Below are positions 339 through 64,000 of a stretch of 64,000 nt of DNA, one piece after another (position 1 is the first letter of the stretch; each line of letters opens with the position of its first letter). The position numbers and the translations under genes are program-made. The DNA is from a virus, in IMG/VR virus record IMGVR_UViG_3300045988_183539; one strand, written 5' to 3'. The notes beneath the pieces are model-generated. The model was not told the DNA's origin. It made no database searches and was given only the letters and a program-made list of their open reading frames with translations.

Positions 339-728
339 ATGATTGGTATTCCTATAACACAAGACATTTTAAAATATGAAGCTAAATTTGCTCTTAATCT
401 AACAACAAGAAAATGTATTTTTTATGGATTAGGAGCTACAGCTGTATTAACAAGTTTCTTTTTATTATTTAAAGATTTTAGTTTTACATTTAGAGCGTGT
501 GCTTCTATTTGTATAGGAATTCCTTTATTTCTTTGGGGTGCAGTAAAACCTTTTGGTGTTAACCCAGAAAAGATTATAAGCCCTATAATTTTTGATAATT
601 TTATTGCACCTTCTGTACGAATTAAAGAAATCCATATGACAGTATATGATGATAAGAAAAAAATAGTAAAAGAAACAAAAAAGAAAAATAGAGCAAAAAT
701 AAGTAAAGAGTATAAACCTATATATTAA
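339..728 (+). CDS. small two-TM membrane protein directly upstream of the VirB4-like gene (TcpE/Orf17-like position)
   Basis: 129 aa with two hydrophobic helices and GGGGAG RBS. Its position before the VirB4-like ATPase is typical of Gram-positive conjugation loci. Confidence 0.45.
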   Translation: MIGIPITQDILKYEAKFALNLTTRKCIFYGLGATAVLTSFFLLFKDFSFTFRACASICIGIPLFLWGAVKPFGVNPEKIISPIIFDNFIAPSVRIKEIHMTVYDDKKKIVKETKKKNRAKISKEYKPIY

Positions 729-748: not shown

Positions 749-3217
749 ATGGGATTTGGTAAAAAAAATAAAAATAATATAAATACTGTTGATAATGAAC
801 AGAATAAAAATAAAAAGAAAACTAATAAAAAGAAGATTAAAATACCTAAAACAGTTCAAGATACTTTAGATTGGGAATGTGTTTTTGAAAATGGTGTTTT
901 TCAAATAGGTCCTAAAAGATTTTCTAAAACTTTTTATTTTGAAGATATTGCTTTTAAAACAAAATCTGATGAAGACCAGATGGCTATTTATCAGGCATAT
1001 TTAAGATTTCTTAATTCTATAAATCCTGATGAAGATTTATTTATTACTTTTGTTAATTATAAAGATGATGAAAATGCTAAGTTAGCGGCAATCCTTCCTA
1101 TAAATAAAGATGATGGCTTTAATAATTATAGAAAAGAATTAGGAACTATTTTAAGAAATAATATTAAATTAAGTAGAAATGCTATATCTACAAAAAGATA
1201 TATTACTGTTTATGTAAATGCAGATACAGTTGATAATGCAATGTTGAGACTAAATGAATTAGAAACAACTTTAGAAAATGCTTTTAAAAAAATATGTGGT
1301 GCAAAATTAACAGCCATATCTTTAGAAGAAAGATTAGAAGTTATTAATAATATTTTAAATGGCACAGATGAAGCAAACTATTGGTTTGTACACGATAAAA
1401 CAGGAAAAACAACTATAGATTTTAAAGAAATGGCAAGACAAAAGCTTACTACTAAAGATATTATAGCTCCTCAGTCTATGAAATTTTATAGTAATCGTTT
1501 TGAAATTAATGAAAGAATAGGACAGGGAATGTATCTTGATAATTTAGCAAACTGGATGGATACTAATTTTTTACCTAGTCTGATAGCTGTTAATTTTGAG
1601 TCAGTTTTTACTATTCATATATCTGCATTAGAGCAGACAGAAGCAATAAAGAAGGTACATAATAAATCTATTAATATAAATGCTGAAATAGAAGATAAAA
1701 TGGATGCAAGAGCAGCAAAAGGCAAAGACCCTACTTTTATTAATGCAGATTTAAGAAAAGCACAGGCTGAAATAGAAGATTTACAAAATGATATTCAAAA
1801 CAGAGACCAGAAATATTTCTTTATGGATATGTCTATTATTCATTTTGCAGAAAATAAGCAGATTTTAAAAGAACAAGAAAAAATAATAAAAAATAGTGCA
1901 AATAAATATATGTGTTCGATAAAACCAGCTTTAGAACAGCAGGAAAGATGTCTTATTAGTACATTACCTTTGGGTCATAACAAAATGTTCCAGACAAGAG
2001 GTCTTACTACAGAAAATTTAGGAGTTTTCTTACCTTTCGATGAGATAAACCAGTTTGATGTTAATGGTATTTATTATGGAGTAAATGCTATTAATAAATC
2101 TTTAATAGTTTATGACAGAACAAAAGGTATGAATTATAATGGTTTAATTTTTGGTGCTTCTGGTTCTGGTAAATCTTTTAGTGCTAAACGTGAAATAACA
2201 AGTGTTCTTCTTAATAAAAATGCAAATTGTTATATCATAGACCCAGATGATGAATATACACCTATTGCAGATGCATTTGGTGGAACTATAATTAAAATAT
2301 CACCTGGTAATGGTGTTTATATAAATCCCTTCGATTTAGATATAGATACATCTGCTGATAGTGATTTAAACCCTATTACTATGAAGATAGATTTTATTTG
2401 TGGTTTGCTGGAAACAATGATAGGAAATAATGCTAAATTATCTCCAACACAAATTTCTATTGTTACTAGATGTGTACAACAGATATATAGACCTTATTTA
2501 GAGCATTTACAGGAACTCCCTCCAGACGAAAATGGTAGAAAACGTACTATAGATAGAGATTATTGTCCTACAATGCAGAATTTATTTGATGCTTTAATTA
2601 ACCAGCCTCAATCAGAAGCTCAAAACCTTGCCTTAATTATGGAAACATATACAGCAGGAGCATTTGATACATTTGCTCATAGAACAAATGTAGATATAGA
2701 TAATAAGTTTATTATTTTTAATATATCTAACATTGGTACAAACTTAAAAGAATTAGGTCTTAAAATTTGTGTAAACCACGTCTGGAATAAAATGGTAGAA
2801 AACAGAAGAAATAAGAAATGGACTTGGTTTTATATAGATGAATTCCATTTACTTCTTAAGAGCCATTCGACATCAGATTTCATAATGTCTATTTTTAAGA
2901 GAGCTAGAAAGTTCTTAGGAGTTACTACAGGTATTACGCAAAATGTTGGAGATTTACTTAGAACAGAAGATGGACAAGCTATTATTAATAATACATCTTT
3001 CATTTATATGTTAAATCAATCAGCAATGGATAGATATGATTTACAAAAATTATTAAAACTGTCTGATGGAGATGTTGAATATGTTACAAATGTAGAACAA
3101 GGTCACGGTCTTATTTATACAGGAACACAGACAATACCATTTTCTGATGATTTCCCAGAAGATACTAAGTTATATGATATTATGACAACTAAACCTAAAC
3201 AAGAGGAAGTTGCGTAA
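749..3217 (+). CDS. VirB4-like conjugative transfer ATPase (TcpF/Orf16/TrsE class)
   Basis: 822 aa; Walker A GASGSGKSF, Walker B WFYIDEFHLLL, with size and domain order of Gram-positive VirB4 homologs. AAAGGA RBS. Confidence 0.8.
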   Translation: MGFGKKNKNNINTVDNEQNKNKKKTNKKKIKIPKTVQDTLDWECVFENGVFQIGPKRFSKTFYFEDIAFKTKSDEDQMAIYQAYLRFLNSINPDEDLFITFVNYKDDENAKLAAILPINKDDGFNNYRKELGTILRNNIKLSRNAISTKRYITVYVNADTVDNAMLRLNELETTLENAFKKICGAKLTAISLEERLEVINNILNGTDEANYWFVHDKTGKTTIDFKEMARQKLTTKDIIAPQSMKFYSNRFEINERIGQGMYLDNLANWMDTNFLPSLIAVNFESVFTIHISALEQTEAIKKVHNKSININAEIEDKMDARAAKGKDPTFINADLRKAQAEIEDLQNDIQNRDQKYFFMDMSIIHFAENKQILKEQEKIIKNSANKYMCSIKPALEQQERCLISTLPLGHNKMFQTRGLTTENLGVFLPFDEINQFDVNGIYYGVNAINKSLIVYDRTKGMNYNGLIFGASGSGKSFSAKREITSVLLNKNANCYIIDPDDEYTPIADAFGGTIIKISPGNGVYINPFDLDIDTSADSDLNPITMKIDFICGLLETMIGNNAKLSPTQISIVTRCVQQIYRPYLEHLQELPPDENGRKRTIDRDYCPTMQNLFDALINQPQSEAQNLALIMETYTAGAFDTFAHRTNVDIDNKFIIFNISNIGTNLKELGLKICVNHVWNKMVENRRNKKWTWFYIDEFHLLLKSHSTSDFIMSIFKRARKFLGVTTGITQNVGDLLRTEDGQAIINNTSFIYMLNQSAMDRYDLQKLLKLSDGDVEYVTNVEQGHGLIYTGTQTIPFSDDFPEDTKLYDIMTTKPKQEEVA

Positions 3218-4201: not shown

Positions 4202-7200
4202 ATGAATAGTAAGGCAAATAATAGTAGTAATAATACAAAAAATCAGACACGACAGCAAAAAACTACTAATCAGAATAATACATCAAAATCATCAAATAAT
4301 AGTAATAATAGTAAACCATCTGCATCACAGACACAAAATAATGAAACAAAGACTTCAACTTCGTCTTCAACAAATTATAATACAAGACAGGCTGTAAATA
4401 CTATTGGCAGAGATATTTACAATTTAACAGATGGACGAATAAAATTAGGTTCATTTCAAGAAGGTGGAGGACGTGCTGGAGCTAGACAGGCTTTAGCTGA
4501 AACTGTATATAATTATACAACACAAGGTACAAGAGATAGAGAAAACAATTCCTTTTTTGATAATAAAATGAGGTTTAATAAAACAATAGCAGTTATGTCT
4601 GCTGTTGGTCATACAGCTAAAGAGAATGCTGTTATAAATACATATAATAATATTGATTGGAATAGTTCTAAAATACAGACCCAAATGACAAAAATGGGTA
4701 TCCTTTCTAATAACAGCCAGCAATACCTTAATAGCTTTTTAAGTTCTAATACTGTAGTTGTTCCTAATAATGAAATAAAGAATGTAAATGAAGACAAAAT
4801 TACATTAGGTGATTTAAAATTAAATAATTCACAAAAGGCTAGTTTAATAAATACAGGTAAGTTTACTTTTGAAGGACAAGAATATCATATAAAAGATAAA
4901 GAGTTGTCAGAAGTAAGAAAAGCCTATAATGCTGCAAAAATAGAAATAAAAAATAATAATAATATTACTAAAGCTCTTACAGGTAAAGATAAAGAATTAG
5001 TAATGCAGCAGATAAAAAGCAAACAGACAGATTATCTTAAAAAAATTAGTGTTACAGGTGGATTTAATGGTAGTTTAGCTTCTACTAAGAAAGAAATTAA
5101 AGCTATAGATTATAAGTTAGAGATATTAGAATGTAAATTAAAATCTGCTAATAATGCAACAGACTTACATAACTTTAAAAGCCAGATTGCAGAATTAAAA
5201 GATTATAAAGAGTCATTTATGTTATATAAAGAAACAGGAGCTATAACAGAAGACTTTGATAGAGGTGCTGGAAGAAAAAAATATGGCCGTTCTATAATTG
5301 CTCAAAATATCATTGGCAGTGATATGTATAGAGGAACTAAATTTATTCAAAATAGTAGTAAAGCTATTATTAGTGGTGCAAGATTAACAATTAAGACAAC
5401 AACAAAGGCTAGTGCTGGATTAGTTAGTGCAGCAACATATATTCCAAGAAAAACAAGTCCAAATTCTAAAGCAGGAATAATAAGCAATAATATTAATAAT
5501 AATGCACAGAAATATAAGAATAATATTAACGATAAGATAAGACATAAGACAAAAGAAGAAAAAAAAGCTCAGGCAAAAGAAAGAAAAGTTACTCATAAAG
5601 CAGAAGCTTTAGAAAAAAGAGAGAAAAGACTTGAAAGAACAGAAGCTAGAATTAATATTTTAAAAACAGGTAAATTAACTGATGCAGAAGAAAAAAGACT
5701 TCAAAAATTAACAGAAAAGATAAATAGTAAAAAAATAGTATCTAATAAAGAATTAAACGAATATAATGAGTTATTAAATAAAAAAGAAAAAGGTGTTTTA
5801 ACAAGAAAAGACCAGAAAGCTTTAACAAAACAGCAAAAAGTTTATAAAGCAAGAACAACATTATATAGTACTCCAGATAAAGTAAAAGAAACAGTAAAAG
5901 ATGGTTTAAAAAAATCTAAAGGTGTTGTTGTAAAAAAGGTAAAAACAACAAAGGCATATGATAAATATACACAGTTTAAAAATGGCAAATTCTATGGAAA
6001 TGCGATGAAAGTAAAAGGAAAGGTAAGAAATAGTAAGATTGGAAAAGCAAGTAAAGATATAAAATATACTATTTTACATCCTTTTAAAACTGTAAAAAAA
6101 ATAAAAGATATGATAATAGATAAGCCATTAATGTTCATTAAAAAGTATTTATTAAAAATCATTGGAACTGTTATAGCTTTATATCTTTTATTAATAGGTT
6201 TTGCTTTTATTATGTTATTACCTATATTAGGTATAGGTTCATTTTTTGACTCATTACCATCATCAACAATTTCTAATGAATTAGCACAAATAAATTATAT
6301 TCAATTAATTGTTAATGATACAGCTAATAATTTAGGTAAAGAACTTACAAAGACAGCAATAAAAGATGCGGAAACTCATTTTATATCAGAAAATGGAGCA
6401 GTTTCTTCTACAAAATATGATTGGAAGAAGAGTGTATCAGAAGGAAGTATAAAGCATATATGGGCTACAGAAGATTTAAATAAAGATGTCTGGGATAGAA
6501 CAGAACTTGCAGGAGTATCTGCTAATCTTTTACCTATTACAAGTATGATGCATTATAGATATAATCAATCAATTGATTTTGATAATTATTTAACTGCAAA
6601 AGCATATATATATTATATGTATGTAAGGTCACACGATACAGCCGCAGATGAAAATGGCAATATATATAGTTATGATACATTAGCAGATTGTTCAAACGAT
6701 AGTTTATATGTAACAAAACCTACATATGATATTGATAATAGTAAAGTAACAAGAGGAGTGGAAAGCTGTACTAATGTATATGTACACGGATATTCTTCCG
6801 ATTATAATAAAGCTATTAACAAAGCAAGGGCTGAATTAGGTGATTTTTTAAATATGGTTCAGAGTGCTTTAGGTATAGGACATCCAGATGGAACTAATGA
6901 AGATAATGGTGTATTTATAGACAAAAAACCTTATGATAGTAAAGGGGAATGTGACAACTATGAAGCATTTCAAGCTGGTGTAGGAAATAATTATACTAAT
7001 TGTGGAAAAGAAGAACACGACCATAATAAAGAAGGTTGTAGCAAAGCTTGGTATAATGGTGATGATATATGTACTATTGAGGAACATATACATAATGATG
7101 ATTGCTATATTCATAACAAAACATTTTTAGGTTATGATAATTGTGAATTTGGTGATATACACGAAGAAACAGCTGATTGTTATGAACTTCAATTTTTACC

Positions 7201-10576: not shown

Positions 10577-11443
10577 ATGAGAAAAATAATAAATAATTTT
10601 GTACAAATATCTATTCTGTTATGTTTTATTGTAATTTTTAGTTCAAATAAAATAAATGTATATGCTTCAGATGATATTCCAACAGTAACACTTGATGCTG
10701 GACACGATAGCTTTCATACAGGAGCAACAGCAAATGAATTATATGAAGAAAAATTAAATTTAATAATTACAAATTATTGTAAAGATTATTTAGAAAAACA
10801 TTCTAATATTATTGTGTATTTATCAAGGGATAATTTTACCTGTCCTTATCCAGACACACCATATAAAGATTGTAATTATGAAAGGTTAATAAAAGCAAAA
10901 GAAGTAAATACAGACCTTTTTTATAGCATTCATTGTAATTATAGTCCACACGAATATATGAATGGAGCTAGTGTTATAATTCCAAATACAAATTTTAAAC
11001 CATATTTTTATGAAGAAGGAAATATATTAGCAAATATTATAAAAAATAATTATAGTAATTTAATTCCTGTTACAGAAATATATACAAGAAATTCAGATGA
11101 AGATGAAGAAACAATAGATAATTTCTATCCAGATGAAACAAGGGCTGATTATTATAATGTAAATAGAACAAGTAAATATAATGATTTTTTAGGAATTATT
11201 GTTGAACACGGATTTCTTTCTAATACAAATAATGCAGAAATTTTAAAGAATACAGATATTTTAAAACAAATAGGTGAAGCTGATGCAAAGTCTATAATAG
11301 AGTATTTTAAAAATAAAGGATATGATTGTGAATTAGAATATATAGAACAAAAAACAACACCCGATATTGATAAAGTAAAAGATTTATTTATAAAAGAAAG
11401 ATACAAAAAATTCAAATTTTTTATAGAATTTTTAAATAAATAA
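10577..11443 (+). CDS. N-acetylmuramoyl-L-alanine amidase (Amidase_3/CwlD-like) with signal peptide
   Basis: N-terminal hydrophobic signal; motifs TLDAGHDSFHTGAT, SIHCNY, EHGFLSN typical of the Amidase_3 fold. Confidence 0.7.
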   Translation: MRKIINNFVQISILLCFIVIFSSNKINVYASDDIPTVTLDAGHDSFHTGATANELYEEKLNLIITNYCKDYLEKHSNIIVYLSRDNFTCPYPDTPYKDCNYERLIKAKEVNTDLFYSIHCNYSPHEYMNGASVIIPNTNFKPYFYEEGNILANIIKNNYSNLIPVTEIYTRNSDEDEETIDNFYPDETRADYYNVNRTSKYNDFLGIIVEHGFLSNTNNAEILKNTDILKQIGEADAKSIIEYFKNKGYDCELEYIEQKTTPDIDKVKDLFIKERYKKFKFFIEFLNK

Positions 11444-21561: not shown

Positions 21562-21611
21562 CGCACTACTTTTAAATGGAAGATATTTAGGTTCGAGTCC
21601 TAATAGTGTGT
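21562..21611 (+). other. tRNA 3'-half-like fragment (acceptor strand + T-arm GGTTCGAGTCC + 3' acceptor)
   Basis: ttagg-TTCGAGT-cctaa T-arm followed by tagtgtg, which pairs with the upstream cgcacta. D and anticodon arms are absent, so it is not a full tRNA. Confidence 0.45.
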
Positions 21612-32940: not shown

Positions 32941-32959
32941 AAAATTGAGGATTTATATT

Positions 32960-33847
32960 ATGAAAGATTGGATAAAAAATATTCATACCATTGATAAGAC
33001 TTGTGTAAATTCTGAAGGGGAATATTATAAATATACAGAATTTAACAGAAAGCCAATATCTTTATATATCGTTGTAACAAGAGATTGTAATGCCAGATGT
33101 CCTTTTTGTGAATATAGAGGAAAACTAAAAAAAATCAATATCAATAAATTTGAAGAAATTTTTATTGAGTTAAGTAAATATTATGATATTACAACAGTTC
33201 ATTTTACAGGTGGAGAACCTACCTTAGAATTAGATACAATTAATGTATTAAGCAAAGTCATAAAAGAAATTTCTCCTTTAACTAAAACAAGCGTTAACAC
33301 CAATGGAATATTCTTAAATGAATTGTCTAATATAGATACAATAGATAATATTGCTTTAAGCAGACACACTATTATAGATAAAGATAATTTTAATATTTTT
33401 AGAACCAATAATATCGCTACATATGAAAATATTTATAATAATAATTATAAGGAAAAAATTCATTTAAGCTGTAATCTTATAAAAGGATATATAGATAGTA
33501 GTGATAAAATATTAGAATATCTTGAAATGGCATCTAAATTAGATATTAATGATGTAGGTTTTGTTAGTCTTATGCATATAAATAATTATTGTGAAGAAAA
33601 TTTTGTAGAATTTAGTAATATAATTCCAAAGGAAAAGGATTTTTTTAATAAAACAAGAGATTATAAATGTATTAATAATAAAAATATAATTACTTGCAAG
33701 TGTGAAAATTATCTTTATAGAGCTAAAAATATGAATTTTATATCAATGTATCATAGATATGCTATTAAGAATAATGAAAAAGCAGATTTTCTTGTTTATG
33801 AAAACAATCATTTAAAACAAGGCTTTAATGGAAATATATTAATATAA
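32960..33847 (+). CDS. radical SAM enzyme
   Basis: CNARCPFCEY (CxxxCxxC) near the N-terminus and a GGEP motif (HFTGGEPTL). GAGGA RBS before ATG 32960 (track start 32945). Confidence 0.6.
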   Translation: MKDWIKNIHTIDKTCVNSEGEYYKYTEFNRKPISLYIVVTRDCNARCPFCEYRGKLKKININKFEEIFIELSKYYDITTVHFTGGEPTLELDTINVLSKVIKEISPLTKTSVNTNGIFLNELSNIDTIDNIALSRHTIIDKDNFNIFRTNNIATYENIYNNNYKEKIHLSCNLIKGYIDSSDKILEYLEMASKLDINDVGFVSLMHINNYCEENFVEFSNIIPKEKDFFNKTRDYKCINNKNIITCKCENYLYRAKNMNFISMYHRYAIKNNEKADFLVYENNHLKQGFNGNILI

Positions 33848-35360: not shown

Positions 35361-35801
35361 ATGAAACATAATATAAAGCAAATATCTTTTATGATAGCGT
35401 CTTTTAAAGATATTACTGATTCTTTTGGAGAAAATAAGAAATCTATAGAATTTTTTAAAAGGCAGGTTGAAGGTCTTGTTAATATAGGTCAGTTAAATTA
35501 TTTAGATGTTATTTTATTCTATAATATATTAGATATATATAATACTAATTTAGAAGAAATAGACTGGATTAAATTAAATAAGAATTTAAACGAATACATA
35601 GAAACTATGAGTAAGGTTGTAAATATAAAAAATAAAGATAGCGTGTATTATTTATTAACAGATAATAATAATATATCTAAGCAGACTAAAAAAGTTATAT
35701 TTAGGACATTAGATATAAAAGATGAAGATTATAAAATAAGTTCAAAGGATAATGATATATCTTTTGGTAGTTATGAAAAGAATAATTCATTTTTATATTA
35801 G
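35361..35801 (+). CDS. hypothetical protein, paralog of 34618-35319
   Basis: See above; GGAG RBS. Confidence 0.5.
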   Translation: MKHNIKQISFMIASFKDITDSFGENKKSIEFFKRQVEGLVNIGQLNYLDVILFYNILDIYNTNLEEIDWIKLNKNLNEYIETMSKVVNIKNKDSVYYLLTDNNNISKQTKKVIFRTLDIKDEDYKISSKDNDISFGSYEKNNSFLY

Positions 35802-36489
35802 AGATTGTATTAATGAACATACTAATGAATTAAGAGAAGATATTTTAGGTTCAAGAAAAGAAAGATGGATGATTGGTGTTAGTTGTATGAGTGGTTGTCC
35901 TGTAAGATGCCAGTTTTGTAATACTGGAAAATTAAAAAGGTATAGAAATCTATCTGCAAAAGAGATATATGAACAGGTTGTTTTTATATTAGACAAGCAT
36001 CCAGAGATAAAAGAGATTGATAGTAAGGAATTTAAGATTAATTATACAAGAATGGGAGAACCTTTTCTTAATATTGAAGCTGTAAAAGAAGCTATCACTC
36101 TTATAGACAATGAGCCAAGATTAAAGAATGTCAAGATACATCATTATATAAGCACAATAGGACTTAAAGGTAGTGATTTTAGTTTTGTAAAGGATAATAT
36201 TACTTTACAAATTAGCTTACATAGTCTTAATGAAGATAGAAGACACAATCTTATTCCTATAGATGGACTTATGAGTATAAAAGAACTTGGCGAAATAAGA
36301 ACAGAAAGTAATCTTAAGACAACTGTTAATATGACGCTTGTAGACACAAAAGACTTTGATATTGATATTATGAAAAAGTATTTTGACCCTAAGTATTTTT
36401 TTATTAAGCTTAGTCCTATTAATGAGAATGAGGTTAGTAAGGAACATAATATGGGTAAAGGTATTATTCATAGAGAAAATTTAATATAA
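35773..36489 (+). CDS. RlmN/Cfr-family radical SAM protein, trimmed form lacking the N-terminal domain and the C-terminal Cys-bearing tail
   Basis: GVSCMSGCPVRCQFCNTG...RNLSAKEIYEQV, TRMGEPFLN, ISTIGL and LQISLHSLNEDRRHNLIPI align with the RlmN core. No Cys after the cluster. Start uncertain (35752, 35773 or 35866). Confidence 0.6.
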   Translation: MKRIIHFYIRDCINEHTNELREDILGSRKERWMIGVSCMSGCPVRCQFCNTGKLKRYRNLSAKEIYEQVVFILDKHPEIKEIDSKEFKINYTRMGEPFLNIEAVKEAITLIDNEPRLKNVKIHHYISTIGLKGSDFSFVKDNITLQISLHSLNEDRRHNLIPIDGLMSIKELGEIRTESNLKTTVNMTLVDTKDFDIDIMKKYFDPKYFFIKLSPINENEVSKEHNMGKGIIHRENLI

Positions 36490-41180: not shown

Positions 41181-41645
41181 ATGTTTGATAGATATAAAAG
41201 AAAAAAATATCCTGCTGGATATGTTGATTTATGTAAGTTTGTAAGATTTTATGATGACTGTAGTTATAATGAAAACGGCATAACAAATAAAGATAAATAT
41301 CATTATGAATATCGTAGTTTTTATTTACAAGGCGTTTCAAATGAAGATTGGACTGTTATTAGTCTTAGTCAAGAAAGAGCAATGGATAAAATTTTAAAAT
41401 TTATGTCTGAACATCCAGAAGCAAGAAAAACAGGTTACATAATAGACGAAGAAAGTAAAGAAAAAGATATTCGTTTAACGAAGGCACTTCATAAACTTAA
41501 TATAAATTATAAAGAAGCTTATGAATACAATAAATATTTGGATAATCAAATAATAGCTGCACTAGATATGGCACTAGAACGACAATATTCTTCTGATAAT
41601 GAGAATAATATGAAAGATAATGATGAATATGATTATGATAGATAA
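41181..41645 (+). CDS. hypothetical 154-aa protein
   Basis: ORF track. Confidence 0.45.
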   Translation: MFDRYKRKKYPAGYVDLCKFVRFYDDCSYNENGITNKDKYHYEYRSFYLQGVSNEDWTVISLSQERAMDKILKFMSEHPEARKTGYIIDEESKEKDIRLTKALHKLNINYKEAYEYNKYLDNQIIAALDMALERQYSSDNENNMKDNDEYDYDR

Positions 41646-47882: not shown

Positions 47883-48362
47883 ATGAAAACTAAGAAAACA
47901 CTAAAATTAGAACAAGATATATATAATGCTACAAAGAAAGTGGGAGTCTTTGGATGTTTTGAAGTGACAATAGGTTTCTTTGGTAAAGAAAGAGTAGATT
48001 ATATGACATATGATACAAAAGGTATTTTTAGATGTTATGAAATAAAAGTAAGTAAGTCTGATTTTCATAGCAATGCTAAATTAAGTTTTGTAGGTCATTA
48101 TAATTATTATGTCCTTACAAGAAAATTATACGAAGAGGTTAAAGATGAAATACCTGATTGGGTTGGTGTTTATGTAGGAGAGAACCTTGTAAAATCACCT
48201 AAAAAGCAAGATATAGACGAAAAGGTATATAAATATAGAAGAACAATAAATGGTCGCTCTAGTGAGCTTACAATACCTTATAAAGAGATGTTAAAAGAAA
48301 GTATTATTAGGTCTCTATACAGAGATGCAAATAAATGGTATATTTATAATTATCAATTATAA
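47883..48362 (+). CDS. PD-(D/E)xK nuclease-fold protein (VRR-NUC/Hjc-like)
   Basis: GVFGCFEVTIGFFGKERVDYMTYD...FRCYEIKVSKSDF has the core beta-strand order with D...E-x-K. Confidence 0.45.
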   Translation: MKTKKTLKLEQDIYNATKKVGVFGCFEVTIGFFGKERVDYMTYDTKGIFRCYEIKVSKSDFHSNAKLSFVGHYNYYVLTRKLYEEVKDEIPDWVGVYVGENLVKSPKKQDIDEKVYKYRRTINGRSSELTIPYKEMLKESIIRSLYRDANKWYIYNYQL

Positions 48363-48378
48363 AGGTGGTATATATACT

Positions 48379-49176
48379 ATGATGATAGCTTTAACATATA
48401 GATGTAATATGGGATGCACTCATTGTATTTCAGATTGCAAACCAGATGGAATAGATATGAGTAAAGACACTCTTATTGATAGTCTTGATTTTATAAATAA
48501 ACATAAAATAAAAGCAATATTGTTTTCTGGCGGTGAACCATTTGAGCATCCAGATATTATATCTTTACTTGATGTTATAGAAGAAAAATTAGATAAGAAT
48601 ACCCCTATTACCTTTGCTACAAATGGAAGAGTTTTAGCAGATAATATTGAAATTTATGAAAAAGTATCTGAATTAGTTAAGAAGAATAAGAAAAGAATAA
48701 TCATACAGGTAACAGATGATGATAGATTTTACCCTACTAAACTTAATGAAAAGCAAAGATATAGACTAGAAAAGATAGGTGCTGTTATAGAAGGTGTTCC
48801 TAGCTATGTTTCTGATAGAAATAAATGTTTATATCCACAAGGTAGAGCTTTAGATAATTTTGATGAATCTTTTTATTATACTATTGCACCTAAATGCGTT
48901 AATATACGATTATTAGTAAGACAGAATATAAATAAAATATCTAATATATGTGATACATTGCTTATGAGAGGAAAGATGTGTACTCCAGTAATTGCTCCTA
49001 ATGGTATGCTAAAAATAGGAGAGTCAGCCTTGTGTCCTGAAGTAGCTTCAATTTATGATAATGAAAAAGATATTATAAATAAAATATCTCATTTTAATTG
49101 TAATAAATGTACATATGCACTTGAACAATTAAAGAAAAATAATCTACCTGCTTATAATCTATTAATAAAGGAGTAA
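48379..49176 (+). CDS. radical SAM enzyme with Cys-rich SPASM/twitch-like C-terminal domain
   Basis: CNMGCTHC (CxxxCxxC), FSGGEPFEHPD, C-terminal CVNIRLL...CDTLLMRGKMCTPV...ALCPEV...NCNKCTYA. AAAGGTGG RBS before ATG 48379. Confidence 0.6.
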   Translation: MMIALTYRCNMGCTHCISDCKPDGIDMSKDTLIDSLDFINKHKIKAILFSGGEPFEHPDIISLLDVIEEKLDKNTPITFATNGRVLADNIEIYEKVSELVKKNKKRIIIQVTDDDRFYPTKLNEKQRYRLEKIGAVIEGVPSYVSDRNKCLYPQGRALDNFDESFYYTIAPKCVNIRLLVRQNINKISNICDTLLMRGKMCTPVIAPNGMLKIGESALCPEVASIYDNEKDIINKISHFNCNKCTYALEQLKKNNLPAYNLLIKE

Positions 49177-56956: not shown

Positions 56957-57001
56957 CAACATTATTATTAAAAAAAATACAAATGAGAGGAGTATCTGCT
57001 A

Positions 57002-59674
57002 ATGAATAGTAATAATATTGTTGAATGTATGTTTTTTGGTCAGAGATTTAATGAAAAGCCTTCTAAAATGGAAACAGGATATATACAGAAGAATATAACG
57101 ATTGCAAACATAACAATAGAAAATTTAGCAGAAGCTCTTGTTAATGGTGCTTCTTTTAGACCAAGCATATTAATAGGGGGACGTACAAAAGATGATTGGA
57201 AAAGACAACAGCTTTTTGGTTTAGATTTTGATAGTGGTGTTTCTATTGATGCATCATACAATAAAGCTATATCATTAGGTCTTATTCCTGTATTTATGTA
57301 TACTACATTTAGTCATACTCCAGAACATCACAAATATAGAATGATTTTTTGTACAGATAAAGTCATTACAGATATGGCTTTAAGAGACAAATTCCAAGCT
57401 ACTCTTATGGGTTTAATGGGAGATATAGATAAAGTATGTTTTAACAGAGATAGATTATTTTTTGGAGGAAAAGGTAAAGAAATACTTTTTCCTAATTTCA
57501 ATGCAAAACTTAATGCAGAAGAAATTATAGATAAGTATTGGAAAGATGATTTTGAAGTATATATAAAAGGACAAACTAAGTCAAAAAAAAGAAAATTAAA
57601 GAAAACAACAGAACCTAAGCAAAATAATTCATTTACTGTTATAAATTATGAACCAGATATTGATGAAATACCTTATGCAAGTTATCCAGTAAGATGTGTT
57701 ACCTTAGGTAATTTACGTTGTCTAAAAAAATATTATGATAGTATTATTTGGGCAGAAGGAATGCACAGAGAAAGATTTATTTTTATTTACTACAATTGTG
57801 TTAAATTACTTTATGGTTCAGATAGAGCTTATAAAGAATGTATAGAATTAAATAATAGTATGGAAGAACCATTAACAACATATGAATTAAAATCTGCAAT
57901 AATACATACAGATGAACATATGGAAAATAAAGATTGGTATAGAAAAGCATTACACGGAGATGGATGTTTTATTTTTAGACCTGAAACAATTATTTCAGAT
58001 AAATGGTTAAATATAGATGAAGAAACAGCTATAAAATGTGGATTTTTTGATAATAAAATAAGAAAAGAAAAAATAGAAGAAAATAAAAAGTTAGATACTC
58101 TTAGAGATAAAGAAGTAGCTAGATTATATTTATCTGGATTAGGTTATAAAAAAATAGTTAATAACCTTTCTAAGGAATATAAATGTAGTGCATCTACAGT
58201 TAAAAGAACTATAGAGAGATTAGGAATAAAAGAAAGAAATATTTCTTTAGAAGATATAGAGTTTAATGAAAATAAGAAGTATGCCAAACATTCGTTTGGG
58301 GTGCCGAAAGTGACTAAACTAGAAAAAGAAGTTTTTAAGGTAAAGTCTAAAAAAGAAATATCAGATAATAAAGAAGATAATATAGTATTTTTAAATGAAG
58401 ACTGTAAGAGATTATATGAAACGTCTAAAAATGCAGGGTCAGAAAGTAATATTAATGAACAGGAGATAGCTATTGAAACAATATTAAATAATCCTACAGT
58501 TAATTACTGTTTAAAAGGTAAAGCTGGTACAGGTAAAAGTTATTGTATTAATAGTTTATTACAGAGATTAACAGAAGAAGAAAGAAAAAAGACATTAGTA
58601 GTAGCTCCAACAGGAGTAGCTGCTTCTAATATTACATATACAACAGCTCATACAATACATTCAATATTTGAGTTATATACATTCGTACAAAGACAAGATG
58701 AACATATTAGGATACCTAAGATTTTATTAAATGTAGATAGAATTATCATTGATGAAATAGGTATGGTAAGAAAAGATGTATTTAATCAGTTAGTACGAAT
58801 TATTAATAATGCTCAAAAATTAACAGGTAATAAAATACAGTTAATATTAGCAGGAGATTTTGGACAGATTTCCCCTGTTGTTACAAAAGAAGATAAAACT
58901 GTAATGGATATTTATTACAAGGGAAGTGAAGATAAATATTTCTGTTTTGATAGTCCTTTATGGGATAGTTTAGATATTCATACAATAGTATTAAGAAATA
59001 ATCATAGACATAATAATGATGATTGCGATGAATTACAGAAAGAATTTATTAATATATGTGATGAGATTAAATTTGGAGCTATATCAGGATTAAAATGGTT
59101 AAATAATAACTTAAAACATACTGCTATAGAAGATGGAATATATCTTTGTGCTAATAATAAACAGGTTGATGTTTATAATAAAATGTATACAGATAAATTC
59201 ACAGATAAAAAGACATATAATGCTGTATGTTTTGGAATTACATCTGAAAGAAAATTACCTGTAAAGCTTAGTTTAGAATTAGCAGTAGGTATGAAAATAA
59301 TGACTCTTGTTAATACAAAGAAATACAAGAATGGTAGTTTAGGAGTAATAACAAAGCTTTATAAGGATAAGATTAAAGTAAAGTTAGATAATACAGGAAA
59401 AGAGATTACTGTAAAATATACTGAATTTAAGATAAATGAAGAAACTGATGAAGTATTATATCAGTTACCAATAGCTATAGCATATGCTATTACTGTAAAT
59501 AAAGCACAAGGATTAACATTAGAGAAAGTAAATATTGTTCCTGGCTTTTTTGCGGCAGGACAATTATATACAGCTATAACAAGAATAAAGAATGTACATA
59601 ATATTAGTATTATTGGTGAATTAAAAGAAACTGATTTAGTTGTAGATACAAGAGCATTAAGTTTTATTGCTTAA
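57002..59674 (+). CDS. replication protein: N-terminal AEP-type Prim-Pol + PriCT-like region + HTH, fused to a C-terminal Pif1/RecD-like helicase
   Basis: N-terminal LFGLDFDSG (DxD) and TTFSHTPEHHKY (SxH) primase-polymerase motifs; HTH ASTVKRTIERLG. Helicase motifs LKGKAGTGKSY, VVAPTGVAASNI, IIDEIGMV, ITVNKAQGLT, AAGQLYTAITRIKN. GAGAGGAG RBS. Confidence 0.7.
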   Translation: MNSNNIVECMFFGQRFNEKPSKMETGYIQKNITIANITIENLAEALVNGASFRPSILIGGRTKDDWKRQQLFGLDFDSGVSIDASYNKAISLGLIPVFMYTTFSHTPEHHKYRMIFCTDKVITDMALRDKFQATLMGLMGDIDKVCFNRDRLFFGGKGKEILFPNFNAKLNAEEIIDKYWKDDFEVYIKGQTKSKKRKLKKTTEPKQNNSFTVINYEPDIDEIPYASYPVRCVTLGNLRCLKKYYDSIIWAEGMHRERFIFIYYNCVKLLYGSDRAYKECIELNNSMEEPLTTYELKSAIIHTDEHMENKDWYRKALHGDGCFIFRPETIISDKWLNIDEETAIKCGFFDNKIRKEKIEENKKLDTLRDKEVARLYLSGLGYKKIVNNLSKEYKCSASTVKRTIERLGIKERNISLEDIEFNENKKYAKHSFGVPKVTKLEKEVFKVKSKKEISDNKEDNIVFLNEDCKRLYETSKNAGSESNINEQEIAIETILNNPTVNYCLKGKAGTGKSYCINSLLQRLTEEERKKTLVVAPTGVAASNITYTTAHTIHSIFELYTFVQRQDEHIRIPKILLNVDRIIIDEIGMVRKDVFNQLVRIINNAQKLTGNKIQLILAGDFGQISPVVTKEDKTVMDIYYKGSEDKYFCFDSPLWDSLDIHTIVLRNNHRHNNDDCDELQKEFINICDEIKFGAISGLKWLNNNLKHTAIEDGIYLCANNKQVDVYNKMYTDKFTDKKTYNAVCFGITSERKLPVKLSLELAVGMKIMTLVNTKKYKNGSLGVITKLYKDKIKVKLDNTGKEITVKYTEFKINEETDEVLYQLPIAIAYAITVNKAQGLTLEKVNIVPGFFAAGQLYTAITRIKNVHNISIIGELKETDLVVDTRALSFIA
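58285..58341 (+). repeat. copy C of the conserved ~55-nt element, embedded in the primase-helicase CDS at the linker between HTH and helicase domains
   Basis: AAACATTCGTTTGGGGTGCCGAAAGTGACTAAACTAGAAAAAGAAGTTTTTAAGG; encodes ...KHSFGVPKVTKLEKEVFKV... Confidence 0.7.
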
Positions 59675-59735
59675 ATAAAAAGCAGTTAAAAAATACAATA
59701 CATAAATTAAGATTATATGAAAGGAAATTAAAATT

Positions 59736-60209
59736 ATGGATAAAAGAAAAGTAATGACAGGACATTATCAGGAAAATATGTTTGGAGATTTAATGGATAG
59801 AGAAGATTATTTTCATAAGCTGCCGAACCTTTCAAGAAGACAGGTAGAACTTCCTAAGGAAAAAGAGAAAGTATTTTTTATAAAAGAAGATGAAATTGAT
59901 TGGGGATTAAGAAGCCAAGAGCTATTAGATGAAGAAAAAAATACGATATATGAAGTATATGATTTAACTGAATGTCCAGAAGATGCAACAATATATAGAG
60001 ATTTATTTAACGCTAATGATTATATTGCTGCATTAAAATTAGGAATGAAATTAGCAAAAGAAGGTTACACATCTATAAAAGTTATGGATATAGATAAATT
60101 AAATGAATATCTTGAAAGTAAGAATAAAGAGAAGGCTGTAGAAAATACTAAAGAAACAACAAAAGAAATAGCTGATAAAGAAATAGAAGATTTGTTCATA
60201 TTAGATTAA
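59736..60209 (+). CDS. hypothetical 157-aa protein
   Basis: AAAGGAAAT RBS. Confidence 0.45.
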   Translation: MDKRKVMTGHYQENMFGDLMDREDYFHKLPNLSRRQVELPKEKEKVFFIKEDEIDWGLRSQELLDEEKNTIYEVYDLTECPEDATIYRDLFNANDYIAALKLGMKLAKEGYTSIKVMDIDKLNEYLESKNKEKAVENTKETTKEIADKEIEDLFILD

Positions 60210-60283
60210 AGATATAAATATCTTTTCTGTAATGTTCTTATGTAGATATTAAATTATCAAGAAAAGAAGGAAAGTAAATATTA

Positions 60284-60604
60284 ATGGAGTTTGCAGTACA
60301 AAGCAATGTTATTAGAGGACTTTCAAAACAGCAATATCAGACATTAATGGAATTATGTCAGTATTCAAACAATCTTTACAATGTCGCACTTTACAATATC
60401 AGACAATATTTCTTTAATGAGAAACAGTTTTTAACTTACGAGAGTAATTATCACGAGTGTAAAGAAAATGAAAACTATGCTTTGTTACAAGCAGGAGTTG
60501 CACAACAGACTTTAAAAGTCGCTGATAGAAGTTTTAAATCATTCTTTAATCTGTTAAAGAAATGTAAAACTGGTGATTATCGTTACCATAAAGTTCACAA
60601 GTAG
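60284..60604 (+). pseudogene. N-terminal fragment of an IS200/IS605-family TnpB (OrfB)-like protein
   Basis: 106 aa resembling the TnpB N-terminal helical region (LSKQQYQTLMELCQYSNNLYNVALYN...LLQAGVAQQTLKVADRSFKSFFNLLKK...YHKVHK*), then a stop; RuvC-like and zinc-finger parts are absent. Confidence 0.4.
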
Positions 60605-60633
60605 CAATAGAGATTTCAATTTCTAATAAAAGA

Positions 60634-60855
60634 ATGCGAAATACTAATTTTGATATTTTACCTGACGAATATACAAAAATACTAATAACAAAAGATAATA
60701 AAGATGAAAATAATAATATTGAAAAGCTACCATATTATGATTTCATATATGAGTTATCTAAAGGCAAACAATTATTAGAGTACAAGAGAACTCCTATAAA
60801 AGTAAATGAACCTAATATAGAGCAAGAAAAAATATGTGATATAAAAACACAATAA
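60634..60855 (+). CDS. hypothetical 73-aa protein
   Basis: ORF track. Confidence 0.3.
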   Translation: MRNTNFDILPDEYTKILITKDNKDENNNIEKLPYYDFIYELSKGKQLLEYKRTPIKVNEPNIEQEKICDIKTQ

Positions 60856-60872
60856 TAAAATATTTTTAAAAT

Positions 60873-60909
60873 AAGGGCTGTTTTTTAAGACAGAACCCTT
60901 ATTTTTTTT
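60873..60909 (+). terminator. rho-independent terminator
   Basis: aagggctg...cagaaccctt + T8. Confidence 0.55.
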
Positions 60910-60945
60910 CACTTTGAGACAATATTATTGTATAAAGTGATATTG
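60905..60945 (+). promoter_or_regulatory. promoter cassette family member
   Basis: TTTTTTTTCACTTTGAGACAATATTATTGTATAAAGTGA. Confidence 0.4.
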
Positions 60946-60971
60946 TTGTAATTATAAAAAAGGAGCGAAAA

Positions 60972-61223
60972 ATGTTTAATATTCGTAAAAAGAAACTAAA
61001 AAAGATATTAGATAGACAATATGAGTGTTCTTCATTAAGAGATTATTTAAGAAATATAACACATAAAGAATTACATATACTTGCAGAAGAAATAATATGG
61101 AAAAATTATGATGGTTATAATACAGAAGCTTGTTTATCAAAACAAAAGCATTATGATTATATGGATAGAGATAGTAAAGAATTTTTTATATATGAAAATA
61201 GTTCTCTATTAGGATTATATTAG
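60972..61223 (+). CDS. hypothetical 83-aa protein
   Basis: AAGGAGCGAAAAATG RBS. Confidence 0.45.
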   Translation: MFNIRKKKLKKILDRQYECSSLRDYLRNITHKELHILAEEIIWKNYDGYNTEACLSKQKHYDYMDRDSKEFFIYENSSLLGLY

Positions 61224-61252
61224 TTTTTTATTAATATAAGGAGCATATAACA

Positions 61253-61810
61253 ATGAAAAAGAAAAGTTTTATAAAAGAGTTTATAAAAAGAAATGAAGAA
61301 TATTATGCAGAGTTTCTTGTATTTTTAGATGTTACTATTTCTTTTATTATAGGAGGAGTAATAACATTTTTAACAAATAATCATTCAGAAAATAATTGTT
61401 ATTTTTTTATTAATTTACTTGAAAATATAATTATTGTGTTAATTATAAGTTTTTTAATAATGTATTGTTTATTTTTAGTATTTGTAAAAATAATTCCTAA
61501 TGTTATTAATTTTGTAAATAAACAGAAAGCAATTTATAAATATGTTCGTTTATTTAATGAACTTGAAAATAGAAAATTTTTAGATACAGCTTTAGATGTT
61601 ACAGCATATATTATAAAAATATTAAATTATAAAAAAGCAGATGGTTCTTTTTCAGTTATAAAATTAACAAAGGAAGATACATATAAGTTATCAGATTTTT
61701 ATAAAAAAAGATTTAATGAGCCTATAATGATAGAAGATAAAATGTTTAAGAAAATTGGATATAAAAATCCATTTCCATATAGCGAAGTTATATGGTGTTC
61801 TAATCCTTAA
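61253..61810 (+). CDS. membrane protein (two TM helices)
   Basis: AAGGAGCAT RBS. Confidence 0.45.
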   Translation: MKKKSFIKEFIKRNEEYYAEFLVFLDVTISFIIGGVITFLTNNHSENNCYFFINLLENIIIVLIISFLIMYCLFLVFVKIIPNVINFVNKQKAIYKYVRLFNELENRKFLDTALDVTAYIIKILNYKKADGSFSVIKLTKEDTYKLSDFYKKRFNEPIMIEDKMFKKIGYKNPFPYSEVIWCSNP

Positions 61811-61907
61811 AAAATAAAGCTTCAATATTGTTTTTTATAAAAATATGACAATATATATAAAATAATTAATTTATTTCTTACCAATAAAGAAAAGAGGATA
61901 AAAAGCT

Positions 61908-62798
61908 ATGGATAATACAGCTTTAGCAAAGAGAATGAAAAAATATTATGAAGAAGTACCTAAAACAAGATTAATAAGAAGAATGCCAGTATGTATAAGA
62001 TTAGATGGAAAAGCATTTCATACGTTTTTAAAGGGATTTAAAAAGCCATTTGATGATATATTTATAAAAACAATGCAGGATACTATGAGATACTTATGTC
62101 AGAATATACAGGGATGTGTATTAGGTTATTCACAATCAGATGAAATCAGTTTAATACTTATAGATTATCAAAAACTCACAACAAGTGCCTGGTTTGATTA
62201 TAATGTTCAAAAGATATGTAGTGTGTCATCAAGTATGGCTACATTAACCTTTAATAAGCTATTAAAAAACAATGTTGATAAATATAAGGTTGAAAAATGG
62301 GATGGAGTTTCAAAGTATAAAAATGGAGAAGATGAATATATTGAGACATTATTAAGAGCAGTTGATAAAGGTGCAATGTTTGATAGTAGATGTTTTAATA
62401 TACCAAAGGAAGAGGTTGCTAATTTAATATTCTGGAGACAATTTGATGCAAGCAATAATTCAGTACAAATGGTAGGACAGGCTTATTTTACGCAAGAAGA
62501 ACTTAATAACAAGAATACTAATCAGATACAGGATATGTTAATGACACAGAAAGGCATTAACTGGAATGATTATCCTATTTATCAGAAGAGAGGAAGTTGC
62601 TGTATTAAACGAAAATTCTGGATTGATAAAAATGATGGGTGTGAATTTAGTGAAGAATATTCTTGTGAATTAGAAAAAGCAGGCGTTAATAGTGATAATG
62701 CTATTAAAAAAACAGAATGGATTATAGATAAAAACATTCCTATATTCAAAGGAGAAAACAGAAAATATATAAATGAATTAATACTTTTTAAGGAGTAA
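61908..62798 (+). CDS. Thg1-like protein (TLP): tRNA-His guanylyltransferase-family 3'-5' nucleotidyltransferase
   Basis: PVCIRLDGKAFHTFLKGFKKPFD and VLGYSQSDEISLIL match the Thg1 RLDG-x-FH-x-F and GQSDEYSF catalytic motifs; C-terminal ANLIFWRQFDASNN matches the Thg1 WRQ region; 296 aa. Confidence 0.65.
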   Translation: MDNTALAKRMKKYYEEVPKTRLIRRMPVCIRLDGKAFHTFLKGFKKPFDDIFIKTMQDTMRYLCQNIQGCVLGYSQSDEISLILIDYQKLTTSAWFDYNVQKICSVSSSMATLTFNKLLKNNVDKYKVEKWDGVSKYKNGEDEYIETLLRAVDKGAMFDSRCFNIPKEEVANLIFWRQFDASNNSVQMVGQAYFTQEELNNKNTNQIQDMLMTQKGINWNDYPIYQKRGSCCIKRKFWIDKNDGCEFSEEYSCELEKAGVNSDNAIKKTEWIIDKNIPIFKGENRKYINELILFKE

Positions 62799-62804
62799 AA
62801 ATAA

Positions 62805-63002
62805 ATGGATAATGTGTGGCATATATTTGACAAAGAATATCCAGATAAAAAATTAATAAAAGGGAAAAGATATTTGATTTGCACTTGGAGTAATGAGTAT
62901 TTTTGTGCTGAATTTACAGGTGAAGATTTTTTTGGATATCCATTATTAACAAAAGCTTGGGCTGAATTTGAAAGATTTGAAGAAAAAGAATATAAAAAAT
63001 AA
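62805..63002 (+). CDS. hypothetical 65-aa protein
   Basis: ORF track; 6 nt after the previous gene. Confidence 0.4.
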   Translation: MDNVWHIFDKEYPDKKLIKGKRYLICTWSNEYFCAEFTGEDFFGYPLLTKAWAEFERFEEKEYKK

Positions 63003-63112
63003 GTTTGAAAAATAAAAGGAGAATTTTAGATATGGGAAGTTATACAAATTATAGTATGGAAGTAATAGATATTGATAATTAAGGATATAATGCATATAAA
63101 ATTGCAAAATAT

Positions 63113-63298
63113 ATGTTAGACAAAAATAATGAAGCTGAAAAATATTATGCTTTTTATAATAGTTTAGAAAATTTTATAGAAAATATTGACCCTACATTAA
63201 AAATAGATTATTTCCTGATATACTTTTTAAATTACACGAAGAAGGTGAAAGAAATGAAGATATATTGGATAAAGTATTTTATAAATGGAAAAATGTAA
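63113..63298 (+). CDS. hypothetical 61-aa protein
   Basis: ORF track. Confidence 0.3.
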   Translation: MLDKNNEAEKYYAFYNSLENFIENIDPTLKIDYFLIYFLNYTKKVKEMKIYWIKYFINGKM

Positions 63299-63390
63299 CA
63301 TTGCCCAGCAGAAATACATATTCCAGAATTTGATGGAAACAAATTAGAAGGAATAAGTCAAGATAATATAGAAATGGATAGGTAAAGATT

Positions 63391-63615
63391 ATGGAAAAAG
63401 GAACAGATATATGTTTAGCAGAGATAGCTTTTTTAATATTAAGAAATATTCCTAATGGGTATTCAAAAGAAGAAAAAGACTGTTTTGGAAATGGTGTTAT
63501 TACTATGTTAAACACTTTACAAAGTACACTTGATATATTAAAAGAAAATTCTAATATAAGTATGGAAGATATTGAAAATATTATAAAAAAAGAGATTTTA
63601 TTGGGGAAGGAATAA
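63391..63615 (+). CDS. hypothetical 74-aa protein
   Basis: ORF track. Confidence 0.35.
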   Translation: MEKGTDICLAEIAFLILRNIPNGYSKEEKDCFGNGVITMLNTLQSTLDILKENSNISMEDIENIIKKEILLGKE

Positions 63616-63621
63616 ATATAT

Positions 63622-64000
63622 ATGGTCAAAAAAATAAGATTAATTGGAGACAAAACAACTAATTTATTTTGTATGAATTTAAAACAATATTTTAATTTTA
63701 TAGGTACTTATGTTGAAATAGATTATGTGTATGATTATATTTATAAAAACGATTTTATAGATAAAGAGTTATTAAATGATTTATTTATAATAACAGATAA
63801 TAAAGAAAATAATATAAATATTGAGTATGATTTAGTAATTTCAACAATTAAAAATACAGGTAGTGACATTTATATTATAGAAGACAGTATAAATCAAATA
63901 AAATACAATTATGAAGAAGACATAAATATTATTTTATCTCTATTATTAAAAAATAATTATATTACAGAAGATGAATATGATGTTTTAAATATATTAAATC
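63622..64000 (+). CDS. hypothetical protein, 5' portion (continues beyond the window)
   Basis: GGGGAAGGAATAAATATATATG RBS; open frame to the window end. Confidence 0.35.
   Translation, partial: MVKKIRLIGDKTTNLFCMNLKQYFNFIGTYVEIDYVYDYIYKNDFIDKELLNDLFIITDNKENNINIEYDLVISTIKNTGSDIYIIEDSINQIKYNYEEDINIILSLLLKNNYITEDEYDVLNILN

Follow-up and report, generated by a model that had tools for sequence, protein, structure and literature searches.

What does a templated 3'-5' nucleotidyltransferase do for a mobile element? The question is raised by one gene in a 64,000-nucleotide stretch of DNA, IMG/VR virus record IMGVR_UViG_3300045988_183539, which is referred to here as the window. An initial annotation had described the product of this gene as a Thg1-like enzyme encoded on a mobile element and had suggested that it repairs tRNA as a counter-defence. 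Judged from its sequence, the window protein is a bacterial-type Thg1-like protein (TLP) of the Thg1 family with an intact active site, and repair of tRNA 5' ends is the role that we favour for it.

Assignment of the gene product to the Thg1 family

The open reading frame (ORF) lies exactly where the initial annotation had placed it, and a Shine-Dalgarno-like sequence stands ahead of its start codon:

61908..62798, + strand: TLP gene, with ATG start and TAA stop, 296 aa; predicted templated 3'-5' nucleotidyltransferase
61893..61898, + strand: Shine-Dalgarno-like AGAGGA, 9 nt ahead of the TLP ATG, read off the sequence

Direct support for family membership came from profile search, in which the Pfam family PF04446 (Thg1) matched the protein with E=2.3e-29 and 102.4 bits (gathering score 29.2) over profile positions 2-130 of 130, and PHROG 4717, 'tRNA-His guanylyltransferase', matched it with E=4.6e-82. 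A search of PDB profiles returned the TLP of Bacillus thuringiensis (BtTLP, PDB 4kgk) as the closest solved structure (E=4.5e-59), followed by the archaeal TLP 5axk (MaTLP, from Methanosarcina acetivorans; E=9e-11) and by the eukaryotic Thg1 proteins of yeast, human and Candida (E=2e-9 to 8e-6). The signature motifs named by the initial annotation are present at residues 31-34 (RLDG), 37-40 (FHTF), 73-79 (GYSQSDE) and 176-178 (WRQ); its spacing 'RLDG-x-FH' was one residue short, the sequence being RLDG-KA-FH-T-F. The gene is under purifying selection, with a ratio of nonsynonymous to synonymous substitution (dN/dS) of 0.16 and 0.36 in comparison with two diverged variants of this element and of 0.13-0.21 in comparison with phage homologues.

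In BtTLP the catalytic carboxylates are D30/D75/E76, corresponding to D29/D76/E77 of hTHG1, and the residues of the nucleoside triphosphate (NTP) site are E12, R28 and R131 (PMC3701042). The carboxylates align to D33/D78/E79 of the window TLP, so that neither of the findings that would speak against the assignment, a failed profile search or missing carboxylates, was made. D33/D78/E79 are invariant in two alignments (A1 and A2) and, together with N184, are kept in 95-99 of the 100 sequences of the family alignment A3. E15, R31 and R161 align to the three NTP-site residues of BtTLP. With residue roles taken from PMC3701042 and PMC4820378, the window TLP also has the residues of the activation step, K46, S77 and N184 (hTHG1 K43/S74/N158), and those of nucleotidyl transfer, R31, K102 and R161 (ScThg1 R27/K96/R133). 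Two codon triplets hold much of this site:

61998..62006, + strand: codons R31-L32-D33, the NTP-binding arginine and the first catalytic carboxylate (BtTLP R28/D30; alignment A1)
62136..62144, + strand: codons S77-D78-E79, the activation-step serine and the second and third catalytic carboxylates (BtTLP S74/D75/E76; alignments)

On these sequence features, the window protein is very probably an active TLP-type 3'-5' nucleotidyltransferase.

HINNLYN is the eukaryote-specific anticodon-recognition motif of Thg1 (PMC6471195). In the window TLP its position is taken by DASNNSVQM (aa 180-188), and the protein is therefore assigned to the TLP type and not to the tRNA-His-specific Thg1. It is also nearer to the characterised TLPs BtTLP and MaTLP than to the eukaryotic Thg1 proteins. 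With the latter, which add G-1 to tRNA-His, it has the Pfam domain, the catalytic carboxylates and the fold in common, whereas it lacks HINNLYN, matches them far more weakly in sequence (E 1e-5 to 1e-9) and would be expected to act in a template-dependent manner with no restriction to tRNA-His.

Predicted fold and the enlarged β-hairpin

An AlphaFold (AF2) model built on the 100-sequence alignment reached a mean local confidence (pLDDT) of 93.7 and a predicted template modelling score (pTM) of 0.90. When the model was compared with the PDB by Foldseek, 32 of 32 matches at E<=1e-3 were Thg1/TLP structures, headed by BtTLP 4kgm and 4kgk with target-normalised TM scores of 0.90-0.92 (best 4kgm, 0.92). 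As modelled, the window TLP shares the polymerase-like palm fold of the solved Thg1/TLP structures. It is 45% identical to BtTLP (PDB 4kgk/4kgm), with identical catalytic residues and the same fold, and differs from it in length (296 aa vs 245 aa), the ~50 extra residues forming two insertions, a helical extension at aa ~122-155 and, at aa ~236-266, a much longer β-hairpin:

62271..62372, + strand: insertion 1 (aa ~122-155, by comparison with BtTLP), a helical extension in the model (helices 100-130 and 141-154)
62595..62729, + strand: enlarged β-hairpin (aa 230-274), where MaTLP has its hairpin R198-R215; strands from the AF2 model

In the model, insertion 1 lengthens a long helix and adds a second one, and insertion 2 enlarges the C-terminal β-hairpin, which is predicted to consist of strands 230-240 and 265-274 with a small tip helix at 249-257. 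The spacing from G229 to W271 is 41 residues, against 8-20 in many relatives, and stands at the long extreme of the family. The length of insertion 1 ranges from 13 to 62 residues across the family. We considered the insertions as a discrete new domain and rejected this, since both lengths vary continuously across the family and there is therefore no discrete new architecture.

The structural model for tRNA 5'-end repair is MaTLP (PDB 5axk-5axn). In its complex with tRNA, the hairpin R198-R215 binds the tRNA elbow and was proposed to gauge the length of the acceptor stem so that polymerisation ends correctly (PMC4820378). The window TLP matches MaTLP with Foldseek E-values of ~1e-14 to 1e-16, residues 151-235 aligning to MaTLP 104-196 in the PDB profile search. 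By analogy, it would share the two-site 3'-5' chemistry and the dimer-based reading of acceptor stem and elbow through the β-hairpin (PMC4820378). The two proteins differ in that they are only ~24% identical, the window hairpin is ~25-30 residues longer, and the conserved hairpin arginine R215 of MaTLP, an arginine in most relatives of the window TLP, corresponds to lysines K266/K267 in this protein, whose hairpin is a predicted one. From the model, the long hairpin may alter the substrate range of the window TLP.

The carrier element

The mobile-element carriage proposed by the initial annotation was borne out by three genes found in the window, two of them genes of a type IV secretion system (T4SS):

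339..728, + strand: PrgI (VirB3-like), PF12666; T4SS gene
749..3217, + strand: VirB4-like ATPase, PF19044 TraG P-loop; T4SS gene
10577..11443: cell-wall amidase, forming a Gram-positive-type T4SS module with PrgI and VirB4

The VirB4-like ATPase is ~35% identical to the 'VirB4-like conjugal transfer ATPase, CD1110 family' of Firmicutes plasmids. As judged from these gene families, the carrier is a conjugative-type element with a Gram-positive-type T4SS. Genes for a relaxase, a coupling protein, an integrase or phage structural proteins were not recognised in the window, and scans of its large ORFs against PHROG and Pfam gave no match to capsid, tail or terminase. The window has ~25% GC, with nearly all genes on the + strand. 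Recoding of TAG or TGA was tried as an alternative genetic code and lengthened the ORFs little; code 11 was therefore kept.

Housekeeping genes were not recognised in the ~82 kb examined (the window with its flanks), which favours as the carrier a very large element, extrachromosomal or integrative, over a small bacterial chromosome. An identical TLP protein occurs on 33 contigs, the longest of 668 kb, and the index entries for the TLP and PrgI proteins include no contig above 1 Mb. Near-identical DNA was found neither in GenBank phages (queries 25001-50000 and 55000-64000) nor in PLSDB (queries 1-25000 and 55000-64000), the sole DNA matches being a 76-nt TnpB-related stretch and a 677-nt match to a faecal 'Bacteriophage sp.' fragment; no TLP more than 66% identical was found among GTDB genomes or IMG/VR contigs. 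The gene order around the TLP is the same in six contexts and two diverged variants, and the TLP is retained in every variant seen while the flanking genes differ between variants.

Distribution of TLPs and earlier proposals

A tblastn search with the window TLP returned 161 GenBank phage records, most of them already annotated 'tRNA-His guanylyltransferase', including Bacillus Bastille-like phages, Lak megaphages, Caulobacter and Erwinia jumbo phages, Pseudomonas phage 201phi2-1 and Fusobacterium phage Fnu1. TLPs were also found in 29 PLSDB plasmids, all typed non-mobilizable, and in 323 stretches of IMG/VR contigs; the whole family comprises 5,297 clusters at 50% identity (E<=1e-3). Outside the element family, the nearest relatives have 60-66% identity and are encoded beside SPbeta-like replication genes, on contigs of 90-430 kb predicted to be viral. 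The large clade to which the window TLP belongs has big gut phages and other large mobile elements as its main carriers. TLPs on mobile elements are thus not unusual, and the window gene is a further example of a known and already annotated kind.

The PHROG 4717 phage clade, comprising Fnu1, Bastille-like phages and gut contigs, is among the closest company of the window TLP: identity is 48% to Fnu1 gp147 and 60-66% to the gut viral contigs, both insertions are common to the window TLP and the gut clade, and the Fnu1 neighbours (Dda/ExoV helicase, HipA and prohibitin) belong to families also present in the window. The window differs from this clade by its PrgI, VirB4 and amidase genes, with no phage structural gene recognised.

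BtTLP repairs 5'-truncated tRNA in vitro (PMC3061083). The crystallised protein is identical over 201 aligned residues, in two stretches, to WP_000377210 of a 235-kb plasmid of B. thuringiensis serovar israelensis (Bti), so that the enzyme taken as the bacterial model is also encoded on a mobile element. Judged from the 235 kb and the host serovar, we take this plasmid to be pBtic235, a circular jumbo prophage (PMC9700832). BtTLP and the window TLP are alike in their carriage by a large mobile element and differ in two respects: the window carrier has a T4SS, whereas 29 of 29 TLP-bearing PLSDB plasmids are non-mobilizable, and the neighbours of BtTLP are SLOG and GIY-YIG genes, which were not seen around the window TLP.

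The counter-defence idea is a published hypothesis and not a new one. RNA repair by phage Thg1 against host defences was proposed in 2010 (PMC2904730) and restated for jumbo phages in 2021 (PMC7824862); a 2019 review of the enzymology leaves phages and plasmids unmentioned (PMC6471195). Our literature search found no experimental study of a phage TLP.

A probable role in tRNA 5'-end repair

By homology, the window TLP would activate the 5'-monophosphate of a tRNA at the expense of ATP or GTP, or dispense with activation where the end is a 5'-triphosphate, and would extend the 5' end by 3'-5' addition of nucleotides, with the 3' strand of the acceptor stem as template. 5'-truncated tRNAs would thereby be rebuilt, and the β-hairpin resting on the tRNA elbow would signal that the stem is complete. 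The likeliest use would be to maintain a usable tRNA pool for the element through 5'-end repair or quality control, plausibly called on when tRNAs are damaged in host-element conflict, and the enzyme would be supplied from the conserved backbone of an uncultured element of ~25% GC with a conjugative-type T4SS. By analogy with the characterised enzymes, we consider it probable, with some reserve, that the TLP repairs tRNA 5' ends to the benefit of the element. That it does so specifically as a counter-defence against a tRNA-targeting nuclease, as the initial annotation had suggested, is possible but doubtful. The tRNA substrate and the reaction are what we infer here, and the counter-defence purpose above all.

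A number of findings weigh against this reading. Bacterial Thg1 genes have been associated with genes for polynucleotide kinase, Macro-domain proteins and RNA ligase (PMC2904730, Anantharaman et al. 2010), and a look for kinase, ligase or tRNA partners in homologous elements was a check that the initial annotation had itself proposed. When the neighbours within 6 kb of the TLP were clustered at 119 homologous loci, neither a kinase nor a ligase nor a tRNA emerged as a conserved partner. Each neighbour family is confined to at most 32 of the 119 loci, and the most frequent ones are SSB-like, adenylosuccinate-synthetase-like, metallophosphoesterase or of no recognised function; these recurrent neighbours are lineage-specific phage early genes and not an RNA-repair cassette. 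In the window itself no kinase, Macro-domain or RNA ligase gene adjoins the TLP. ARAGORN called no tRNA gene in the 64-kb window, and there is none in the 10 kb downstream of the TLP (L001-L006, reaching ~8.8 kb past the window end), the ~9.7 kb read before the window start (L220/L221) lying outside the tRNA scan. No recognisable tRNA-targeting toxin is present in the window or its flanks. The characterised tRNA-targeting defence nucleases cut anticodon loops or 3' ends, and a defence nuclease acting by trimming of tRNA 5' ends is not known to us. In the literature, activity data for phage- or plasmid-borne TLPs are limited to BtTLP, and no in-cell function is on record for any bacterial TLP.

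The initial annotation had also placed the gene among many 'defence or counter-defence-like' genes. This description did not hold up well, as most neighbours are without recognisable function and the label rests on a few generic domains, namely HipA-like, GNAT, the pair of Tpt1-like and ADP-ribosylglycohydrolase genes, and radical SAM. No PADLOC model matched the TLP.

One locus is supportive. In a sister variant of the element (L139), whose TLP is 85% identical and whose backbone order is the same, a 189-aa RNA ligase of the RLIG1 family (5627..6196) starts 15 nt after the TLP stop; it scores 26.1 bits against PF17720 (cutoff 25) and matches PDB 9c6l, 'RNA ligase1', with E=4.2e-12 and the KxDG motif aligned. 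As a 5'-3' RNA ligase, RLIG1 can join fragments of tRNA in vitro (PMC11494293). In the window the slot of this ligase is occupied by an unrelated ORF:

62805..63002, + strand: 65-aa ORF, starting 7 nt after the TLP stop; no family match

The adjacency of TLP and ligase in this variant is a single case and no rule, which counts against the repair reading. An RLIG1-like ligase as general partner of TLPs was rejected, a TLP lying within 4 kb at 0 of the 80 best viral ligase loci. The minimal RLIG1-like ligase family is itself frequent in gut viral contigs of 20-60 kb (151 stretches).

In a stronger version of the counter-defence idea, the long-hairpin clade, which is common in gut phages and borne here by a giant conjugative-type element, would be a true counter-defence: nucleases of a still-unknown class, directed at the acceptor stem or the 5' end, would damage tRNAs or an element-encoded tRNA-like RNA, and the TLP would rebuild them, its enlarged 'ruler' hairpin handling deeper truncations or a non-canonical substrate, perhaps with an RLIG1-type ligase as in the sister variant; we regard this as a long shot.

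Alternatives to tRNA repair

The alternative that survives best is maturation of tRNA-His, in which the TLP would add the -1 nucleotide to an element or host tRNA-His made without the canonical G-1:C73 pair. Addition of G-1 is the founding function of the family, and TLPs can add G-1 to tRNA-His that lacks it (PMC4820378). In two phages with a TLP, the tRNA-His genes do not follow the bacterial G-1:C73 rule. In one (L078 5478-5627), a tRNA-His with U-1 and U73 abuts a tRNA-Pro with no spacer; in the other, Fusobacterium phage Fnu1 (L137 9195-9268), the tRNA-His has A73 and an encoded CCA, G-1 would be unpaired, and the adjoining gene is annotated 'RNA ligase/metallophosphoesterase'. Among 134 loci with TLP or related genes, a tRNA gene lies within 10 kb at 19, on which count a linkage of TLPs to tRNA genes was rejected, and a tRNA-His gene at only 1. 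The lack of tRNA genes from the window and from the 10 kb downstream of its TLP, as well as the missing HINNLYN anticodon-recognition motif, speaks against this alternative, as does the host range of TLP phages, many of which infect alphaproteobacteria (Caulobacter, Brevundimonas, Sinorhizobium). The tRNA-His of alphaproteobacteria naturally lacks G-1. A function in tRNA-His maturation is rather unlikely.

The TLP might instead extend or repair the 5' end of another structured RNA, as has been suggested for Dictyostelium TLP4. TLPs read shape, that is, acceptor stem and elbow, and not the anticodon (PMC4820378), and the elbow-reading hairpin of the window TLP is unusually long (41 vs 8-20 residues in many relatives). 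The same element moreover offers a possible substrate, which the initial annotation had pointed out as a tRNA minihelix-like fragment:

21562..21611, + strand: tRNA-like acceptor stem and T-arm motif, cited in the initial annotation; no shown tie to TLP function

The fragment exists, with a perfect T-arm GGTTCGAGTCC (TTAGG-TTCGAGT-CCTAA) flanked by an 8-bp acceptor-like stem, and its T-loop pattern matches once against 0.06 matches expected. However, 5 of 100 shuffles also reach one match, the fold is no better than that of shuffles (z-score -1.0), ARAGORN does not call the fragment, and its best Rfam match, the small RNA SpF41, scores 27.8 bits, far under the threshold of 52. It is identical in 8 of 8 related contigs, so that no covariation can be seen, and this invariance in all retrieved copies is a further point against it as a substrate. 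It is separated from the TLP gene by 40 kb, and complete pairing of its acceptor-like stem up to the 5' end leaves nothing to repair. The claim of the initial annotation thus stood as to the existence of the fragment and not as to its bearing on the TLP, to which no evidence links it. Since hairpin length is continuous across the family, the long hairpin does not mark a separate class either, and we hold a non-tRNA substrate to be improbable.

That the TLP is a passenger without a role for the element, or a palm-domain enzyme of another function such as nucleotide signalling, the function of its GGDEF and Cas10 relatives, is very unlikely: the Thg1 palm domain is related to GGDEF and CRISPR polymerases (PMC2904730) and the genes flanking the TLP are exchanged between variants, but dN/dS is 0.13-0.36, the TLP itself is kept in every variant seen, every residue specific to the two-site chemistry of Thg1 is retained, and the nearest structural matches are exclusively Thg1/TLP.

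Other genes around the TLP and in the window

Just past the window end, the TLP is followed by genes for a GNAT acetyltransferase, a Tpt1/KptA-like fragment, an ADP-ribosylglycohydrolase and a HipA-like kinase. The Tpt1/KptA-like gene stands directly before the ADP-ribosylglycohydrolase gene (L001 16134..17424, ~4-5.5 kb downstream of the TLP); the former is a C-terminal fragment of 118 aa (PF01885, 25.7 bits, cutoff 26) and the latter encodes 302 aa (126.6 bits). The pair is kept in all variants, followed by the HipA-like kinase, and resembles an ADP-ribosyltransferase/hydrolase pair. Conflicts that centre on translation or nucleic acids often involve the GNAT, Tpt1-like/ADP-ribosylglycohydrolase and HipA families, for which no link to the TLP was seen. 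At 63031-63361 a 135-aa gene, intact in two variants (L138, 10963..11370, and L139), is present as a disrupted copy, with an in-frame TAA after MGSYTNYSMEVIDIDN and then a frameshift.

At other TLP loci, an adenylosuccinate-synthetase-like gene (~363 aa, PF00709, E=3e-34), which we presume may encode a PurZ-type enzyme for 2-aminoadenine genomes, occurs at 4987..6078 of L106 and at 22 other viral loci, ~3 kb upstream of the TLP in one gut phage lineage. Proteins of the SLOG/YpsA family, some with DUF488-N3a, were found near TLPs on the Bti 235-kb plasmid, on a ~300-kb phage contig and ~8 kb upstream of the window (L122 5836..6822, L124 11424..12313 and L220 1786..2898); this recurrence may be a coincidence or reflect a shared nucleotide-related module.

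Most ORFs of the window are without a family match. The other families recognised are a T2SSE-type ATPase, which is accompanied by a pilin-like 68-aa gene, two PIF1/Dda-like helicases, a flotillin, HipA-like kinases, a RuvC-like nuclease and an ATLF-like protease. Three small radical-SAM proteins are encoded within 16 kb (32945..33847, 35752..36489 and 48325..49176). In one related contig (L002), a single 265-aa gene replaces the region from a 154-aa gene (41181..41645) to the C-terminal two-thirds of a PIF1 helicase, which has 637 aa there and 890 in the window; the window at ~41.8-57.7 kb is a variable accessory segment of ~16 kb. The 76-nt TnpB-related stretch (56068-56143), in an ORF-poor gap of ~780 nt, is 91% identical to the interior of a plasmid-borne TnpB gene of Butyrivibrio proteoclasticus, and a 106-aa ORF at 60284..60604 looks by eye like a truncated TnpB N-terminus, with no Pfam match; both may be IS605/TnpB or omega-RNA remnants. 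Rfam gave no family at threshold in the window and none at E<=0.1 around the TLP gene. Scans for promoters and terminators were uninformative in the AT-rich DNA (50 promoter-like sites vs 40 expected, 0 terminators), and repeats around the TLP gene were dismissed as low-complexity noise.

Implications for bacterial TLPs

Bacterial TLPs show clear 5'-end repair of tRNA in vitro, and their biological role is not established. The window gene is one more example of a TLP, on an uncultured T4SS-bearing element, and by itself leaves the picture unchanged. The most useful point to emerge is where TLP genes live, namely on large phages and big mobile elements, with BtTLP on a jumbo plasmid-prophage. 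That the clade is overwhelmingly found on mobile elements suggests that its function should be sought in host-element conflict or in element-driven translation, and not in housekeeping.

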